The notes: generated by a model not told the origin, from the letters alone. DNA of 64,000 bases from Escherichia coli (GCF_003334255.1 NZ_QOWU01000013.1), one strand, 5' to 3'. Shown: positions 2,626 to 40,502, numbered from the stretch's first letter. A program made the numbers and translations.

Positions 2626-4176
2626 ATGCCCACTTCTCATGAAAATGCACTGCAACAACGTTGCCAGCAAATTGTCACCAGCCCAGTGCTTAGCCCGGAG
2701 CAGAAGCGCCATTTTCTGGCACTGGAAGCAGAAAACAATCTGCCTTACCCACAGCTTCCTGCCGAAGCCCGCCGCGCGCTGGATGAAGGTGTAATCTGCG
2801 ATATGTTTGAAGGTCATGCGCCGTACAAACCGCGCTATGTCTTACCCGATTACGCCCGTTTTCTGGCGAACGGTTCCGAATGGCTGGAGCTGGAAGGCGC
2901 GAAAGATCTTGATGACGCACTCTCTCTGCTGACCATTCTTTACCACCACGTACCGTCGGTCACATCGATGCCGGTCTACCTGGGGCAACTGGATGCGTTG
3001 TTGCAACCGTATGTTAGAATTCTAACACAAGACGAGATCGATGTTCGAATAAAACGTTTCTGGCGTTACCTCGACAGAACCCTGCCAGACGCCTTTATGC
3101 ACGCCAATATCGGCCCGTCTGATTCGCCCATTACCCGCGCGATCTTACGTGCAGATGCAGAGTTGAAGCAGGTTTCACCGAACCTGACCTTTATCTACGA
3201 TCCTGAAATCACCCCTGATGACCTGCTGCTGGAAGTGGCGAAGAACATCTGTGAATGTAGCAAACCGCACATCGCCAACGGTCCGGTGCATGATAAAATT
3301 TTCACAAAAGGGGGCTACGGGATTGTGAGCTGTTACAACTCACTGCCGCTGGCGGGTGGTGGCAGCACGCTGGTACGCCTTAACCTGAAAGCCATTGCCG
3401 AGCGCAGCGAATCGCTGGATGACTTCTTTACGCGCACTCTACCGCACTACTGCCAGCAGCAGATCGCCATCATCGATGCGCGGTGTGAATTCCTCTATCA
3501 ACAATCACACTTCTTTGAGAATAGCTTCCTGGTGAAAGAAGGGCTGATTAACCCTGAACGTTTTGTGCCAATGTTTGGCATGTATGGGCTGGCGGAAGCG
3601 GTTAACTTGCTGTGTGAAAAAGAAGGGATTGCCGCGCGCTACGGTAAAGAAGCCGCCGCAAATGAAGTAGGTTATCGCATCAGCGCGCAACTGGCGGAGT
3701 TTGTCGCCAATACCCCCGTGAAATATGGCTGGCAAAAACGCGCCATGTTACACGCACAGTCGGGGATCAGTTCCGATATCGGCACCACGCCGGGCGCGCG
3801 TTTGCCGTATGGCGATGAGCCAGATCCGATCACCCATCTGCAAACTGTCGCCCCGCATCATGCTTATTATTATTCCGGCATCAGCGACATTCTGACGCTC
3901 GACGAAACCATCAAACGTAACCCGCAGGCACTGGTACAGCTTTGCCTCGGTGCCTTTAAAGCCGGAATGCGTGAATTTACCGCCAATGTCAGCGGTAACG
4001 ATCTGGTTCGCGTTACCGGTTATATGGTGCGTTTGTCGGATTTAGAAAAATATCGCGCCGAAGGTTCACGCACCAACACCACCTGGCTGGGCGAAGAAGC
4101 CGCACGCAACACTCGTATTCTGGAACGCCAGCCGCGCGTGATAAGCCATGAACAGCAGATGCGCTTTAGTCAGTAA
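2626..4176 (+). CDS. yjjI: Glycyl-radical enzyme family protein, function unknown
   Basis: 516-aa ORF with a C-terminal glycyl-radical-like motif ([12 protein letters not shown]); AAGGAAAAG ribosome-binding site before the ATG; followed by the activase gene yjjW. Confidence 0.85.
3012..3027 (-). promoter_or_regulatory. DeoR operator O1 (deo P1 promoter), inside the yjjI coding sequence
   Basis: Perfect 16-bp palindrome tgttagaattctaaca exactly 599 bp from O2, the canonical O1-O2 spacing. Confidence 0.7.
3291..3306 (-). promoter_or_regulatory. Candidate DeoR upstream operator OE
   Basis: tgataaaattttcaca, a degenerate operator-like palindrome (about 12/16 match) 279 bp beyond O1, fitting the reported roughly 278-bp OE position. 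Confidence 0.4.
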
Positions 4177-31546: not shown

Positions 31547-31564
31547 TTTTGGATGATGGATGAT

Positions 31565-31597
31565 GGCCGCCATGTGGCGGCCTGAATTATTTTTTGT
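31565..31597 (+). terminator. Hairpin/terminator after yjiA (convergent with brnA)
   Basis: ggccgcc-atgt-ggcggcc hairpin followed by TGAATTATTTTTTG. Confidence 0.5.
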
Positions 31598-31889
31598 TCT
31601 GATCGCGCAGCATCGCTTCACGTAAAATTGCGTTCAGGCGAGTTTGATAGCCTTTACCAGGTCGCTTCAGCCATTCCATCACATCAGCATCAATACGCAC
31701 CGAAGCCTGGGTTTTCAATGGCCGATAAAACTTACCGCGTTCTGCGTTAGACCATTGCTCATCGCTGGAAGGTGGGATATCGCTGTAATCAATCTCTTCG
31801 TCGGATTTATTCGCCAGCGCCTTCAATTCGGCCTCATGCTGCACATCGAGTGTAGAGGAGGTCCCTCGTTTATGTTTAACCATGCTCAT
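31587..31889 (-). CDS. BrnA-like antitoxin (type II TA)
   Basis: About 100 aa from the ATG at 31889 (MSMVKHKRGTSSTLDVQHEAELKALANKSDEEIDYSDIPP...), GGAG ribosome-binding site 5 nt upstream; overlaps the toxin 3' end by 14 nt. Family assigned by resemblance, not alignment. Confidence 0.65.
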   Translation of the reverse strand: MSMVKHKRGTSSTLDVQHEAELKALANKSDEEIDYSDIPPSSDEQWSNAERGKFYRPLKTQASVRIDADVMEWLKRPGKGYQTRLNAILREAMLRDQNKK

Positions 31890-32163
31890 AGCGACTCCTC
31901 TCTTTACGATCTGCTTTTCGTGCACTGATGATTCGAATAATTTCATTTCCGCTTTCGAAACGGATGGTATGCGCAACCAGAATAACCACGATACCGTGAA
32001 CCACGCCGATAGTCTGCCAGCGATACTCACCGTTTTCTATGCGATCTTGCTGTGACAAATGTTGTGGATCATCAAACACCAACACCGCATCTTCAAAGCG
32101 GATGCCATGTTTCACCCGATTACTTTTGGCCTTGTTTGCATCCCATTCAAACTCCATTGGCAT
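31876..32163 (-). CDS. BrnT-like toxin (DUF497 ribonuclease family, type II TA)
   Basis: About 95 aa from the ATG at 32163 (MPMEFEWDANKAKSNRVKHGIRFEDAVLVFDDP...); toxin-first order with overlapping antitoxin, as in BrnT/BrnA modules. Confidence 0.65.
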   Translation of the reverse strand: MPMEFEWDANKAKSNRVKHGIRFEDAVLVFDDPQHLSQQDRIENGEYRWQTIGVVHGIVVILVAHTIRFESGNEIIRIISARKADRKERSRYEHG

Positions 32164-32178
32164 AGTTGCCATCCCTAA

Positions 32179-32190
32179 TTGTATATACAA
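32179..32190. promoter_or_regulatory. Perfect 12-bp palindrome upstream of brnT (candidate autoregulatory operator)
   Basis: ttgtatatacaa, 16 nt upstream of the brnT start codon within an AT-rich region. Confidence 0.35.
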
Positions 32191-32359
32191 AAATGTATCT
32201 ACAATTATTCTGCAATTATAGCGTTGATGTTGGAAATAGCATCACGTTTTGGATAATCAACCATGAAATTGACAATGAGTAAGTTGGACTTGATTCATCC
32301 AATAGAATTTCTCGCCTGACATGGCACACTAAACACCTCGCTGTCGTTAAGGGATTACC

Positions 32360-33526
32360 GTGAAAAACTATAAAGTTATTACCCCGCTTTTTCCTACCTA
32401 TGCACAGGTTAAAGCTATGATGAAAGCCGTCTCAGGCTATTCCCTGAAAGCGGTACGCAATATGATTACCGCCATTCACGAGCAAACCGGTACGCCGCAA
32501 AAACCCGTTGACTGGTCGGAACCCGACCTGTGGATCAGCGAGCGCTTAACGGGTGAAGATGCCGACATCGCCCGTCGTATTTGGGATACCGATAATCACA
32601 TCTTGAACCCGCGCCACAGCTACGGCTGCTACTTATTCCTCAACTATCCCCAGTTTGATCTGATGGAAAGCACACCAGATGATACCTGGCAGCCCACCTC
32701 GCACGGGCAAAAATTCCTGCAAGATGACGAAAAAACGCTGCGTTCACTGGACGATCAGGAAGGCATTCTGCAACTTCTTGAACTATTAGCTGGCCGCGAA
32801 ATGTCGCGCCGCGCCGATTTATTGCCGGAATGGCAGGCCTTTTTGCATCAGCATTCGAAATTCGCGTCTGCAAGTTCAGTGAAAAGCACGCTCTACTCCC
32901 GTCTCTATAACCTTATCGACCGTGACATGGTTAACCGTGAAGGCATGAGCTATCGCATCACCGATACCGGGCGCGCCTGACTTGGAAAAGCGTTACCTGC
33001 ACGAAAAAGCGATCCGCGTAAAGAGCTGTTGGAAGCGGTAAAACGCTATAACGAACAGCAAAAAGAGCTGCTGCGCGAACAAATCAGCACGATGAACCCG
33101 TACAAATTTGAACAACTGGTCGGTCAATTACTGGAAGCAATGGGCTACGAGCAGGTCGAAGTGACCAAAGCCTCTGGCGATAAAGGCGTGGACGTGATTG
33201 GTCAGGTGCAGGTCGGCATCACCACCATTACAGAAGTGGTGCAGGTCAAAAGAATGCAGAACACTATCACTCGCCCGTATATCGACCAGTTGCGCGGGGC
33301 GTTGCCTTACCACAAAGCCATTCGCGGTACGCTCATCACCACCGGGAAATTTGCGGCGAAATGTGCAGAAGCGGCGCTCTTTCCGGGTGCCGCGCCCATT
33401 ACGCTTATCGACGGCGATCGTTTACTGGAACTGTTAATCGAAAATAACGTCGGCATTCGCCGCAGCAATGCAGTGGAATTGCTGGATGTAGATTTGCAGT
33501 TGTTTGATGAGCTGGAGATGGATTAA
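32360..33526 (+). pseudogene. Mrr-family restriction endonuclease gene interrupted by an in-frame TGA
   Basis: One reading frame from the GTG at 32360 to 33526, broken only by TGA at 32978-32980; the C-terminal part (...GDKGVDVIGQVQ...VQVKRMQNTITRPYIDQL...TTGKF...) is a typical Mrr catalytic domain, and translation across the stop reads as a continuous linker. Confidence 0.65.
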
Positions 33527-33589: not shown

Positions 33590-35198
<1,609 letters not shown>

Positions 35199-35209
<11 letters not shown>

Positions 35210-36590
35210 TGGCTTCAAGTTACCTCTAGGATGGAATTGTAAAAAACTGGTTGATTGTACAAAGGAGGGAAATATCTCTTATGGTATTGTTCAACCAGGT
35301 CAGCATCAAGAAGATGGCATTGGTATTATTCGTGTAAATAATATACAAAATGGAAATATTTACATAGACGATGTTCTGAAGGTTTCTCATGAAATAGAAA
35401 GTAAATTTGCCAAAACTAGGTTAGAAGGAGGAGAAGTACTTTTAACACTAGTGGGTTCCACTGGAATTAGCGCCATTACAACTAAAGCACTACAGGGATG
35501 GAATGTTGCTCGTGCCGTAGCCGTAATTAAGCCATGCGATGAAATAAGTGCAGAGTGGATACATATTTGCCTCCAATCACCTTTTACAAAATATTTTTTG
35601 GATTCCAGAGCTAATACTACTGTTCAGAAAACTCTCAATCTCAAAGACGTGAAAGAAATTCCATTACCAATTCCTCCACATGAGGAAAGAGTAAGTCTTG
35701 AGAAAATTTACTTCAATTTTGAGAATAGAATAAACTTAAATATAAAAATTAATAAAATCCTAGAAGAAATGTCACAAAACCTGTTCAAATCCTGGTTTGT
35801 AGATTTTGATCCGGTGGTTGATAACGCTCTGGATGCAGGAAACCCAATTCCGGAAGCCCTGCAATCTCGCGCCGAATTGCGTCAAAAAGTACGTAATAGT
35901 GCAGATTTTAAACCGCTTCCGGCGGAAATCCGCTCGCTTTTCCCAAGTGAATTTGAAGAAACGGAGTTGGGTTGGATGCCAAAGGGATGGCAAATTAAAT
36001 CATTAGATCATATTGCTAATTTCCAGAATGGTTTGGCTTTACAAAAATTTAGGCCGAAGAATATGGAGGATGATTATTTACCTGTATTAAAAATAGCAGA
36101 TCTCCGAGCAGGACAAATAACTAATGACGAACGAGCAAGAACTGATATTTCTGATAGTTGTAAGGTGTATGACGGCGATATGATTTTCTCATGGTCGGGG
36201 ACTTTGATGATCGATATTTGGACTGGTGGGAATGCTGCATTAAATCAGCATTTATATAAGGTCACATCAAAAAAATACCCACAATCTTTTTATTTTATGT
36301 GGACAATACAGCATCTTTCAAGATTTCAACATATTGCAGAGGCAAAAGCGGTAACAATGGGGCACATCAAAAAAGGAGATTTAAGTAACTCTTTCTGTCT
36401 AATTCCTACTTCATCGTTGATTACTAAATATGATAATATCGTTGGAGGATATTTAGCGAAGATTAAAAATCAAAGATTGTTAAATAACCAAATGACCGCC
36501 CTACGCGACACCCTGCTCCCGAAACTCATCTCCGGCGAGCTATCCCTGGACGATATTCCGGATCTCAACACCGATACAGAAGCTGCATAA
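35199..36590 (+). CDS. hsdS: Type I restriction-modification specificity subunit HsdS
   Basis: 463 aa; ATG overlaps the hsdM stop by 11 nt (GGAGGGG ribosome-binding site); two AT-rich variable regions separated by GC-richer conserved central and C-terminal segments. Confidence 0.85.
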
Positions 36591-36684: not shown

Positions 36685-39600
36685 ATGAGTCTCTCTTTCA
36701 GTGAAGCAAAATTAGAACAAGCGATCATTGAACTGTTACAGGATCAGGGATATCAACACCTGATCGGCGATAATGTCCCACGTTCGACTCTCGATCAGGT
36801 CATTATCGAAGACGATCTCCGTCATTATTTAGCGGCACGCTACCAGCCTGATGGCATTACTGAAGAAGAGATTCAGCGACTGATCAAACAGTTCACCACG
36901 CTTCCGGCCTCCGATCTTTATGAAAGCAACAAAACATTTTGTCGCTGGCTGGCAAATGGTTTTCTGTTCAAACGCGACGATCGGCAAAAAAAAGATCTCT
37001 ATATTGAATTGCTCGACACCCGGCATCTACCTGCCGCACTGCGCCAGATATTTGACGCTGAAGATGTCCCGTTGCAACAGGCGGCGGAACTCCCGCCCTC
37101 CTATATTAATCCGCCGCTTAACCGGATTAAGATTGTTAACCAGCTTAAAATCTCCGGTAAAGATAATCAGACTCGTATTCCTGACGGCATTCTCTATATC
37201 AACGGTCTGCCACTGGTCGTCTTTGAATTTAAAAGCGCGGTGCGCGAGCAGGAAGCCAATATAGGCGATGCCTGGAAGCAGCTCTGCAAACGCTATCGCC
37301 GGGATATTCCGCAACTGTTTATCTACAACGCGCTCTGCATTATTAGCGATGGTGTAAATAACCGGATGGGCAACCTGTTTGCGCCCTATGAATACTTTTA
37401 CTCATGGCGCAAAGTCACCGGTAATGAAAACCGTGAACAGGACGGAATTCCATCATTGCACTCAATGATTCAGGGACTGTTTCATCCGGTACGTCTGTTG
37501 GATGTGATTAAAAACTTTATCTGCTTCCCGGATAAAGCCAAGCACGAAGTAAAAATTTGCTGCCGATATCCGCAGTACTATGCCGCCCGCAAACTCTATT
37601 ACAGCATCAAGCAAGCGCGTAAACCTTTCGGTAGCGGTAAAGGCGGTACCTACTTTGGCGCAACGGGCTGCGGAAAAAGCTACACCATGCAATTTTTAAC
37701 CCGCCTGTTAATGAAAAGCGTGGAGTTTGCCAGCCCGACCATTGTTTTGATCACCGACCGTACCGATCTGGACGATCAGCTTTCTGCGCAAATGTGCAAC
37801 GCCAAAAATTACATTGGCGATGACACCATCGTTCCCGTTACCAGCCGTGAAGATTTGCGTAATCAACTGGCGGGACGCAATAGTGGCGGTGTATTCCTGA
37901 CAACGATCCATAAATTCACCGAAGACACCGAACTCCTTTCTGAACGCAGCAATATCATTTGCATCTCGGACGAAGCACATCGCAGTCAGGTTAACCTCGA
38001 CCAGAAAGTCATCGTCGATAAAGAAAGCGGAAAAGTGCGCAAAACTTATGGCTTTGCGAAATACCTGCACGATTCACTGCCAAACGCCACCTATGTTGGC
38101 TTTACCGGAACTCCGATTGACGCAACACTCGATGTCTTCGGTGAGGTGATCGACAGTTACACCATGACCGAATCCGTTCAGGATGAAATCACTGTACGCA
38201 TCGTGTACGAAGGCCGTGCGGCTAAAGTGATCCTGGACTCCAGCAAACTGGAAGAAGTCGAAAAGTATTACGAAGAGTGCGCAAACGCAGGCACCAATGA
38301 GTGGCAAATCGACGAAAGCAAAAAAGCCACCGCAACCATGAATGCGGTACTGGGTGATGAAGATCGGTTAAAAGCCCTCGCGGAAGATTTTGCCAAACAT
38401 TATGAAAAACGCGTAGCCGAAGGTTCCACCGTAAAAGGCAAAGCCATGTTTGTTTGTGCCAGCCGTGAAATTGCCTGGGATTTCTACCGCCAGCTTAAAG
38501 TTATTCGCCCTGCCTGGTTTGAAGTGAAGCAAGCCCCCGATGGCGTCGTCCTGACGGAACAGGAGCAGAAAGAGTTACCGCCTTCTGAAATGGTGAAGAT
38601 GGTCATGACGCGCGGTAAAGATGACGACGAGGCGCTTTATGATTTACTGGGCACAAAAGAATATCGCAAAGAGCTGGATAAGCAGTTCAAAAACGCTAAA
38701 TCGAATTTCAAAATTGCCATTGTTGTTGATATGTGGCTGACCGGTTTTGATGTTCCTGAACTGGATACCATCTATATTGATAAGCCCTTACAAAAACATA
38801 ACCTTATCCAGACTATTTCTCGCGTTAACCGTAAACTGGAAGGCAAAAGCAAAGGGTTAGTAGTGGACTACATCGGCATTAAGAGTCAGATGAACCAGGC
38901 ACTGGCAATGTATTCCCGCATTGATGCCACCAACTTTGAAGATATTCAGCAATCGGTAATAGAAGTTAAAAACCATCTCGATTTGTTGGGGCAAGTATTT
39001 TATGAATTCGACAGTCGGGATTATTTTAGTGGTGAGCCACAAGCGCAATTATCCTGCCTCAACCGCGCGGCGGAATTTGTTCTGCGCACTCAGAAAGTTG
39101 AACGTCGTTTTATGGGACTGGTTAAACGCATGAAAGCCGCCTACGACGTCTGCTGCGGCAGTGAAGCACTATCACAGACAGAACGTGATCATATTCACTA
39201 TTATCTTGCTGTTCGTTCAATTGTTTTCAAACTGACGAAAGGTGACGCACCGGATGTCACCCAGATGAATGCACGCGTTCGTGAAATGATTGCAGAAGCG
39301 CTAAAAGCTGATGGCGTAGAAGAAATTTATTTTCTTGGCGATAAAAAAGCGGAATCCATCGATATTTTTGACGAAGATTATCTGGCGCGAATTAACAAGA
39401 TCAAACTTCCGGCAACGAAGATCCAGTTATTACAAAAATTACTGGAAAAAGCGATCAGCGACTTCAAGAAAGTGAACCAGTTGCAAGGGATTAACTTCAC
39501 CCGCCGCTTCCAGGCGATTATAGATCGTTATAATGAGCGGCGAGAAGATGATGTACTCAACGGTGAAGAATTCGATACATTCAGTCAGGAAATGACCGAT

Positions 39601-39948
39601 ATTATCTATGATATTAAAACCGAAATGGGCACATGGGCCGATTTAGGTATTGATATTGAAGAAAAAGCGTTTTTCGACATTCTTGCTCATATGCGCGATA
39701 AATATCAGTTCACCTATGACGATGAAAAAATGCTGTCACTGGCAAAAGAGATGAAAAGCGTGGTTGACAACACATCGAAATATCCTGACTGGAGTAAACG
39801 CGATGATATTAAAGCGAAACTGAAAGTTGAACTTATTCTGCTTCTACACAAGCATAAGTTCCCGCCAGTAGCAAATGATGATGTTTATATGGGTGTGCTG
39901 GCACAGGCAGAGAATTTTAAAGAACATCATATGAGTGCTTTAAATTAA
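36685..39948 (+). CDS. hsdR: Type I restriction endonuclease subunit HsdR (helicase-nuclease)
   Basis: About 1087 aa from the ATG at 36685 (GGAG ribosome-binding site; ORF track starts at TTG 36673); Walker A GATGCGKS and DEAH box ISDEAHRSQ. Confidence 0.9.
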   Translation: MSLSFSEAKLEQAIIELLQDQGYQHLIGDNVPRSTLDQVIIEDDLRHYLAARYQPDGITEEEIQRLIKQFTTLPASDLYESNKTFCRWLANGFLFKRDDRQKKDLYIELLDTRHLPAALRQIFDAEDVPLQQAAELPPSYINPPLNRIKIVNQLKISGKDNQTRIPDGILYINGLPLVVFEFKSAVREQEANIGDAWKQLCKRYRRDIPQLFIYNALCIISDGVNNRMGNLFAPYEYFYSWRKVTGNENREQDGIPSLHSMIQGLFHPVRLLDVIKNFICFPDKAKHEVKICCRYPQYYAARKLYYSIKQARKPFGSGKGGTYFGATGCGKSYTMQFLTRLLMKSVEFASPTIVLITDRTDLDDQLSAQMCNAKNYIGDDTIVPVTSREDLRNQLAGRNSGGVFLTTIHKFTEDTELLSERSNIICISDEAHRSQVNLDQKVIVDKESGKVRKTYGFAKYLHDSLPNATYVGFTGTPIDATLDVFGEVIDSYTMTESVQDEITVRIVYEGRAAKVILDSSKLEEVEKYYEECANAGTNEWQIDESKKATATMNAVLGDEDRLKALAEDFAKHYEKRVAEGSTVKGKAMFVCASREIAWDFYRQLKVIRPAWFEVKQAPDGVVLTEQEQKELPPSEMVKMVMTRGKDDDEALYDLLGTKEYRKELDKQFKNAKSNFKIAIVVDMWLTGFDVPELDTIYIDKPLQKHNLIQTISRVNRKLEGKSKGLVVDYIGIKSQMNQALAMYSRIDATNFEDIQQSVIEVKNHLDLLGQVFYEFDSRDYFSGEPQAQLSCLNRAAEFVLRTQKVERRFMGLVKRMKAAYDVCCGSEALSQTERDHIHYYLAVRSIVFKLTKGDAPDVTQMNARVREMIAEALKADGVEEIYFLGDKKAESIDIFDEDYLARINKIKLPATKIQLLQKLLEKAISDFKKVNQLQGINFTRRFQAIIDRYNERREDDVLNGEEFDTFSQEMTDIIYDIKTEMGTWADLGIDIEEKAFFDILAHMRDKYQFTYDDEKMLSLAKEMKSVVDNTSKYPDWSKRDDIKAKLKVELILLLHKHKFPPVANDDVYMGVLAQAENFKEHHMSALN

Positions 39949-40109: not shown

Positions 40110-40190
40110 CGCCAACACACCCGCACCGCTCATCACAATCACTATTTATGGAGAATAGTAATCATGACTGACACGCATTCTATTGCACAA
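40110..40190 (-). ncRNA. symR: Candidate SymR antisense sRNA (coordinates approximate)
   Basis: Placed by established knowledge that a roughly 77-nt antisense RNA overlaps the symE 5' UTR and start; an inverted repeat gcggtgcgg...ccgcaccgc (40095-40129) lies at the predicted 3' end. Not independently detectable from sequence alone. Confidence 0.3.
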
Positions 40191-40502
40191 CCGTTCGAAC
40201 CAGAAGTCTCTCCTGCAAATAACCGTCAATTAACCGTGAGCTATGCGAGCCGCTACCCGGATTACAGCCGTATTCCCGCCATCACCCTGAAAGGTCAGTG
40301 GCTGGAAGCCGCCGGTTTTGCCACCGGCACTGTGGTAGATGTCAAAGTGATGGAAGGCTGTATTGTCCTCACCGCCCAACCACCCGCCGCCGAAGAGGGC
40401 GAACTGATGCAGTCGCTGCGCCAGGTGTGCAAACTGTCGGCGCGTAAACAAAGGCAGGTGCAGGATTTTATTGGGGTGATTAGTAGCAAAACGCCACGCT
40501 AA
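40164..40502 (+). CDS. symE: SOS-induced toxin-like protein SymE
   Basis: 112 aa from the ATG at 40164 ([52 protein letters not shown]...); LexA box upstream. Confidence 0.85.

Follow-up and report, generated by a model that had tools for sequence, protein, structure and literature searches.

The brnTA gene pair

The DNA analysed in this study, referred to as the window, is a stretch of 64,000 nucleotides from Escherichia coli (GCF_003334255.1, NZ_QOWU01000013.1). Its minus strand contains two small overlapping genes, brnT and brnA. The brnT gene extends from 31876 to 32163 (start codon ATG at 32163, end of the stop codon at 31876) and encodes a BrnT-family (DUF497) ribonuclease toxin of 95 amino acids, which begins with MPMEFEWDANKAKSNRVKHG (MPMEFEWDANKAKSNRVKHGIRFEDAVLVFDDP...). 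The brnA gene extends from 31587 to 31889 (start codon ATG at 31889, end of the stop codon at 31587) and encodes a BrnA-family antitoxin of 100 amino acids beginning with MSMVKHKRG. The 3' end of brnT and the 5' end of brnA share 14 nt (31876-31889, minus strand). The initial annotation had described two overlapping minus-strand ORFs for about 95 and about 100 amino acids in toxin-first order with an overlap of that length, and the sequence as well as the ORF list agree with this description. The same offset of -14 is common to most Enterobacterales loci, and the overlap suggests that translation of the two genes may be coupled.

A Shine-Dalgarno-like AGGGA is located at 32172-32176 on the minus strand, 8 nt before the ATG of brnT and between this ATG and the palindrome which is described below. 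A purine-rich GGGA/AGGA block is retained at this position across genera. The mechanical ORF list also contains longer versions of both genes, which start at upstream TTG and GTG codons. The ATG starts are favoured due to the RefSeq annotation and to the conservation of the N-termini in other genera. The in-frame ATG at 32170-32172 was considered as the start of brnT as well and was rejected, because other genera do not have it.

Both proteins could be assigned to known families by profile searches. BrnT matches the full model of Pfam family PF04365 (BrnT_toxin; E=8.2e-25, 87.4 bits, positions 1-77 of 77) and BrnA that of PF14384 (BrnA_antitoxin; E=3.1e-17, positions 1-68 of 68). In PHROGs BrnT is described as 'ribonuclease toxin of AT system' (E=6e-23), and BrnA is assigned to an antitoxin family. 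The RefSeq/PGAP names, which are 'BrnT family toxin' for WP_001299718.1 and 'BrnA antitoxin family protein' for WP_000063159.1, are the same as the families that had been proposed from the DNA and are now supported by the HMM search. No match for BrnT or BrnA was obtained in NCBIfam, and neither protein is matched by the curated anti-phage defence models of PADLOC.

For a comparison of the upstream regions 80 loci encoding BrnT relatives were fetched, one genome per species. In most of these loci a BrnA-type gene is found downstream of brnT, and this is also the case in Brucella, Shinella and Chelatococcus. The genes of the pair are small, adjacent, co-oriented and overlapping, and they are linked across taxa. 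Judged from the sequence, the pair belongs to the BrnT and BrnA families and is organised as a type II operon.

Conservation of the toxin and predicted domain structure of the antitoxin

According to a review, the RNase activity of Brucella BrnT requires Asp6, Glu7, Lys9, Arg41 and Glu78 (PMC5086665). In an alignment of 70 homologues four of these five residues have their equivalents in D8, K11, R48 and E88 of E. coli BrnT, which are conserved to 94-100%. The equivalent of Brucella Glu7 is Ala9, at a position which is occupied by different residues across the family (A, P, T, S, E or L) and is also Ala in the crystallised toxin of PDB entry 7VD7. The median dN/dS of 20 Enterobacterales copies is about 0.07 for brnT and likewise for brnA, with synonymous sites that are saturated (dS > 1.2). 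Such a ratio at saturated synonymous sites indicates that BrnT and BrnA are both maintained by strong purifying selection, and E. coli BrnT is likely to be an active toxin.

The antitoxin appears to consist of two parts. Residues 14-57 of BrnA, which correspond to 31719-31850 on the minus strand, align to the entire antitoxin fragment of the 7VD7 complex (chain B, E=5.6e-17), and we infer from this alignment that BrnA binds and neutralises BrnT directly via this segment. Codons 58-100 (31590-31718, minus strand) encode a predicted ribbon-helix-helix (RHH) DNA-binding domain. The N-terminal part, with the putative toxin-binding segment, evolves faster than the C-terminal part, with a dN/dS of 0.15 for codons 1-57 and 0.02 for codons 58-100. 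In an AlphaFold model of BrnA based on 38 homologues the mean pLDDT is 76, and residues 60-99 reach values of 84-88. These residues are modelled as an extended segment followed by two helices (68-75 and 81-99), a predicted layout which is that of an RHH monomer. A Foldseek search with the model found nothing. A profile search against the PDB gave a match to the RHH domain of NikR with E=0.36. An RHH fold of the C-terminal part is regarded as likely.

Palindromic boxes upstream of brnT

The initial annotation had pointed to a single perfect 12-bp palindrome 16 nt upstream of the toxin start. The palindrome TTGTATATACAA is indeed found at 32179-32190, with the core TGTATATACA at 32180-32189. The gap to the ATG is one nucleotide shorter, i.e. 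15 nt (32164-32178), and the palindrome is not the only box. An imperfect copy, TTGTAGATACAT on the minus strand, is located at 32193-32204 with the core TGTAGATACA at 32194-32203. In the following the two elements are called the proximal and the distal box; the distal box is situated 14 bp upstream of the proximal one, measured from centre to centre.

A perfect palindrome of 12 bp alone is not beyond chance in a sequence of 64 kb. The window contains 15 of them, compared to 15.9 +/- 3.8 in block shuffles. The significance of the palindrome upstream of brnT is therefore due to its position and its conservation across genera only. In the 80 loci the motif TGTA-N2-TACA occurs 50 times within about 100-110 nt around or upstream of the brnT starts, distributed over 47 loci from many genera. 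Elsewhere in these loci (431 kb) it occurs twice, from which 0.04 occurrences would be expected upstream of brnT, an enrichment that overstates independence and is not a clean probability because the 80 loci are related to each other. The flanks and the synonymous sites of these loci, however, are fully diverged. The exact motif is absent from 33 of the 80 loci, some of which contain variants such as TGTAGTAACA or TTCGTATACGAA.

A set of 36 loci, consisting of 35 of the fetched Enterobacterales loci and the window, was anchored on the proximal box. In all 36 the core TGTATATACA is found 24 to 50 nt ahead of the start, with one mismatch at the most. Outside of the boxes the upstream regions of the Enterobacterales (Escherichia, Citrobacter, Enterobacter, Klebsiella, Raoultella, Kosakonia, Xenorhabdus, Photorhabdus, Erwinia and Pantoea) are largely unalignable. 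A second box is usually found exactly 14 bp upstream of the first, and its columns, which were not used for the anchoring, contain 1.0-1.8 bits in comparison to about 0.3 bits in the flanks.

The box also recurs in different phyla and on plasmids. On plasmids of Acinetobacter pittii and Klebsiella aerogenes the identical 12-mer TTGTATATACAA is found upstream of brnTA, and the coding DNA of the A. pittii pair is about 64% identical to that of the E. coli pair. A plasmid-encoded brnTA of Salmonella is preceded by TGTATATAC.

The centre of the box varies together with the β-strand of the antitoxin that is predicted to read the DNA. Boxes with the centre TA are found with the strand (Q/H)ASVRID, boxes with GT in seven of seven loci with QLTLRLD, and boxes with CA or CG with xITIRLD/PVTIRLD. 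In distant loci with near-consensus promoters, for example TTGACA-17-TACAAT and TTGACG-17-TACATT, the box overlaps the -10 element or the spacer. An operator box for BrnA, one of two, is most likely what the palindrome represents; conservation, enrichment and the co-variation of protein and DNA are best explained in this way. The comparative data thus strongly reinforce the initial annotation, which had taken the palindrome for a plausible autoregulatory operator. The proximal box is likely to be the strong site and the distal box the weaker site for BrnA. Neither a description of the BrnA operator nor a rule for the recognition of the central dinucleotide was found in our literature search.

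Two observations were made on individual loci. In Xenorhabdus beddingii (locus L034, about 3001-3015) the match to brnT is interrupted by an in-frame stop at its fifth codon (LEFE*DLAKA), and the gene probably represents a toxin pseudogene, although it is still preceded by two perfect TGTATATACA boxes. In Shinella and Chelatococcus (loci L088 and L089), which are close relatives of the Brucella module, a different palindrome is found (TTCGTATACGAA, and TTCGTACACGAA or TTCGTGTACAAA). These palindromes are located 130 nt upstream of brnT beside a -35-like hexamer TTGACG, and the antitoxin β-strand reads AVTLRL. This looks like a shifted operator specificity inside the BrnTA family.

Candidate promoter and leader

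A consensus scan of the minus strand revealed no full sigma-70 promoter upstream of brnT. A candidate -10 hexamer, TATAAT, is found at 32215-32220 (minus strand) with no recognisable -35, and it is kept as TATAAT, TATACT or TATTAT in Escherichia, Citrobacter, Klebsiella and Raoultella. If transcription started from this hexamer, the two boxes would be located downstream of the start site and upstream of the ribosome-binding site. A second promoter candidate, TTGTAG and TACAAT with a spacer of 15 nt, is located inside the boxes. It would lead to a nearly leaderless mRNA without the conserved AGGGA, which argues against this candidate. As no complete sigma-70 promoter could be identified, it is uncertain where the boxes are situated with respect to the start site; under either candidate a repressor bound to the boxes would block RNA polymerase.

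Directly upstream of TATAAT, at 32221-32250 on the minus strand, the block AAAACGTGATGCTATTTCCAACATCAACGC, which contains a (C/T)GTGA motif, is kept in Escherichia, Citrobacter, Klebsiella and Raoultella, whereas members of the Enterobacter group have kept the boxes and do not have this block. A CRP site was considered at the conserved (C/T)GTGA...TTCCA block and rejected, as its centre would be near -30 from the TATAAT-based start. A match to the Rfam ribozyme drz-agam-1 at 32169-32244 (minus strand) remains below the threshold (21.5 bits, gathering score 37, E=0.17) and is taken as a chance match due to the AT-rich inverted repeat.

Distribution and genomic context

E. coli ATCC 11775 (NZ_CP033092.2) matches the window with 100% identity. 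The pair is encoded by 2003 of 5426 complete E. coli genomes (about 37%; at least 80% of a query of 861 nt). The 62-nt promoter/operator stretch is present in 2000 complete E. coli genomes, in 1901 of them with at least 99% identity. In the window the genes are arranged in the order lgo genes, tsr, btsT, yjiX, yjiA, brnA, brnT, Mrr-like pseudogene, hsdMSR and symE. The pair adjoins yjiA and marks one border of the variable restriction island, also known as the 'immigration control' region; brnAT is mentioned among the three toxin-antitoxin systems of this island in a review of restriction-modification (EcoSal Plus 2025, PMC12707154). The same place at the yjiA side is occupied by brnTA in several Citrobacter species, in an Enterobacteriaceae MAG and in Pluralibacter.

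E. coli K-12 does not contain the pair, and mrr follows directly after yjiA. When 31547-31590 of the window is compared with K-12 (locus L002, 9865-9909), the similarity stops just past the stop codon of yjiA, with the exception of a short CGGCCTGA, which indicates that the variable island begins immediately after yjiA. The initial annotation, according to which K-12 has no equivalent module here, was right on this point, and the survey of complete genomes shows the presence and absence across E. coli that it had suggested to look for. In K-12 a different, REP-like hairpin follows yjiA.

Between the convergent genes yjiA and brnA the window contains the GC-rich hairpin GGCCGCCATGTGGCGGCC (31565-31582), an inverted repeat with seven G-C pairs which was found by the terminator scan of the plus strand. 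It is a terminator for yjiA, and it is likely to serve the 3' end of brnTA as well. On the plus strand the hairpin is followed by a T-run (both within 31565-31598), which is the complement of the last lysine codons and the stop codon of brnA, AAAAAATAA, so that the end of brnA supplies the T-tract of the yjiA terminator.

An Mrr-like endonuclease gene is located beside brnT on the plus strand (32360-33526). It is split by an internal stop into two ORFs (32360-32980 and 33029-33526) and is annotated as a pseudogene in RefSeq. Each half matches PDC-S02, a candidate defence family of PADLOC (E=1e-99 and 3e-95, respectively), and in strain B1.H1.39 the gene is intact (1167 nt). It is followed on the plus strand by a type I restriction-modification system (hsdM 33590-35209, hsdS 35199-36590, hsdR 36685-39948) and by symE (40163-40501). 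As this gene order is unlike that of K-12, the strain has a different version of the immigration control region.

Reduced forms of the region were seen in further E. coli strains. In ESBLEC_HM52 (locus L091, 5081-6553) the interval between yjiA and mdtM contains only brnA, brnT, an IS1 pseudogene and a gene fragment; here brnTA is what remains after the loss of the restriction genes. Strain B1.H1.39 (locus L092, 1581-1999) has a truncated toxin gene and an intact antitoxin gene, and in a further strain (match H23) only the brnA part is found. Decay that affects the toxin first is consistent with an addictive module, but only two such cases were seen.

Alternative explanations

Instead of being sites for a protein, the two boxes might form a hairpin in the 5' leader, at the level of RNA (or DNA), which would control translation or mRNA stability. 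They make up an inverted repeat of 14 nt with 93% complementarity, and the leader, if transcribed, folds at -16.4 kcal/mol compared to -7.7 in shuffles (z = -3.9). However, two copies of a self-complementary box pair automatically, and many loci contain a single box that has no partner. Among 22 Enterobacterales sequences the covariation is not above that of shuffles, since the one two-sided pair change observed was reached in 480 of 500 shuffles. In the distal arm, substitutions disrupt pairs in 3 to 15 sequences and are not compensated in the proximal box, which is invariant. Due to the missing covariation and the automatic pairing the hairpin is regarded as a by-product, and a role of its own seems very improbable to us. 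We give equally little credit to the explanation that the palindrome is a chance AT-rich sequence or a part of the core promoter without any repressor function. It is true that palindromes occur in the window at the chance rate (15 versus 15.9 expected), that the internal TACAAT (32178-32183) resembles a -10 element and that the box overlaps the -10 in distant loci. A -10 element accounts for six bases, however, and not for an invariant symmetric box of 10-12 bp accompanied by a second box. Neither would it be expected from this explanation that the box persists where synonymous sites are saturated, that it is found again in different phyla and on plasmids, or that its centre co-varies with the antitoxin β-strand; besides, operator and promoter functions can coexist.

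A further question is whether the pair is an inactive remnant with a dead toxin, in which the regulator alone has been retained and the strain has no functioning toxin-antitoxin system. Ala9 in place of the Brucella RNase residue Glu7, the adjoining Mrr-like pseudogene in the same strain and the decayed brnTA copies of some E. coli would fit such a scenario. On the other hand, the ORFs of brnT and brnA are both intact, and the dN/dS of 0.07 holds across genera. The toxin has retained D8, K11, R48 and E88, and the position of Glu7 is variable family-wide, including the 7VD7 toxin. The decayed copies have lost the toxin, which is expected if it is harmful when unopposed. The chances of a remnant are therefore considered to be very small.

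Proposed function and its implications

We consider it highly probable that the locus is a chromosomal type II BrnT/BrnA operon beside yjiA, which a BrnA dimer would repress via two TGTA-N2-TACA boxes. From the knowledge about the family, free BrnT would be a small ribonuclease with a RelE-like fold that stops translation. The middle segment of BrnA (residues 14-57) would wrap the toxin and thereby neutralise it, and the C-terminal RHH dimer would bind DNA. The comparative data suggest that the BrnA dimer, probably as BrnT2BrnA2, occupies the two boxes. The boxes coincide with the promoter or immediately follow it, and they end shortly before the ribosome-binding site, so that the operon would be repressed by a bound complex. 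Stabilisation of the island, phage defence or a purely selfish persistence are possible roles of the pair.

The pair itself is already known, as it is annotated in RefSeq, is widespread, has a close homologue with a solved structure and is named in the review of the island. A literature search found no experiment on this brnTA pair of E. coli. What is gained over the known facts is a testable two-box operator model for the whole BrnTA family, in which the centre of the box co-varies with the antitoxin β-strand. The model predicts which BrnA proteins could cross-regulate plasmid and chromosomal copies. This bears on plasmid stability in Acinetobacter and Enterobacteriaceae as well as on the persistence of brnTA at the yjiA edge of the island after the loss of restriction genes.

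A wider and rather doubtful idea is that TGTA-N2-TACA is the family-wide operator of BrnA, with the centre read by the RHH β-strand, and that chromosomal BrnA cross-represses or even neutralises an incoming plasmid brnTA and so has an anti-addiction function within the immigration control island. The box is identical and the predicted RHH domains are nearly identical between E. coli and the Acinetobacter and Klebsiella plasmids, so chromosomal BrnA could act on a plasmid-encoded brnTA.

Comparison with known systems

The BrnT/BrnA pair of Brucella abortus was reportedly described by Heaton and coworkers in 2012, with the PDB entry 3U97. The E. coli pair belongs to the same Pfam families, shares the bicistronic organisation with the toxin gene first and encodes an antitoxin for which a C-terminal RHH domain is predicted. 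Four of the five RNase residues are common to both toxins, whereas the sequence similarity to 3U97 is distant (E=3.4e-4) and Glu7 is replaced by Ala in E. coli. The Brucella toxin is shorter (81 instead of 95 amino acids), and the genes overlap by 1 nt instead of 14 nt. The Brucella operon is likewise preceded by boxes of the type TGTA-N2-TAC(A/G), of which TGTACGTACA is exact and TGTATGTACG and TGTACATACG end in G. In contrast to E. coli, however, the centres of these boxes are CG, TG and CA instead of TA, and there are three of them at irregular spacing instead of two at a distance of 14 bp. Binding and repression of the Brucella brnTA promoter by the BrnTA complex is stated in reviews (including PMC5086665). 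It is for homologues, namely Brucella BrnT and AbkB of Acinetobacter, that reviews report a ribonuclease activity and a growth inhibition which the antitoxin relieves.

Much closer in sequence is the complex of PDB entry 7VD7, which was deposited as 'toxin' and 'antitoxin' and for which the literature search found no publication. Chain A is about 85% identical to E. coli BrnT over 94 residues. With 92 of 94 residues it is identical to a BrnT cluster of Salmonella enterica, its nearest sequence. The crystallised toxin comes from a species other than E. coli. Of the antitoxin the crystal contains the toxin-binding fragment only, and the structure is therefore silent on DNA binding. The other RHH antitoxins of the CopG/Arc/MetJ superfamily, such as ParD, PrpA and their relatives, are also among the closest known systems.

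The SplTA/AbkBA systems of Acinetobacter plasmids (DUF497/COG3514) belong to the same families. The A. pittii toxin is identical to E. coli BrnT at 53 of 95 positions, and its genes are preceded by the same palindrome TTGTATATACAA, although the second box is less clear at the Acinetobacter plasmid locus. SplTA/AbkBA is plasmid-borne and has a role in plasmid maintenance, whereas the E. coli copy is encoded by the chromosome within a restriction island. According to a review, expression of AbkB/SplT in E. coli leads to inhibition of translation and to cleavage of lpp mRNA and tmRNA (PMC4963858).
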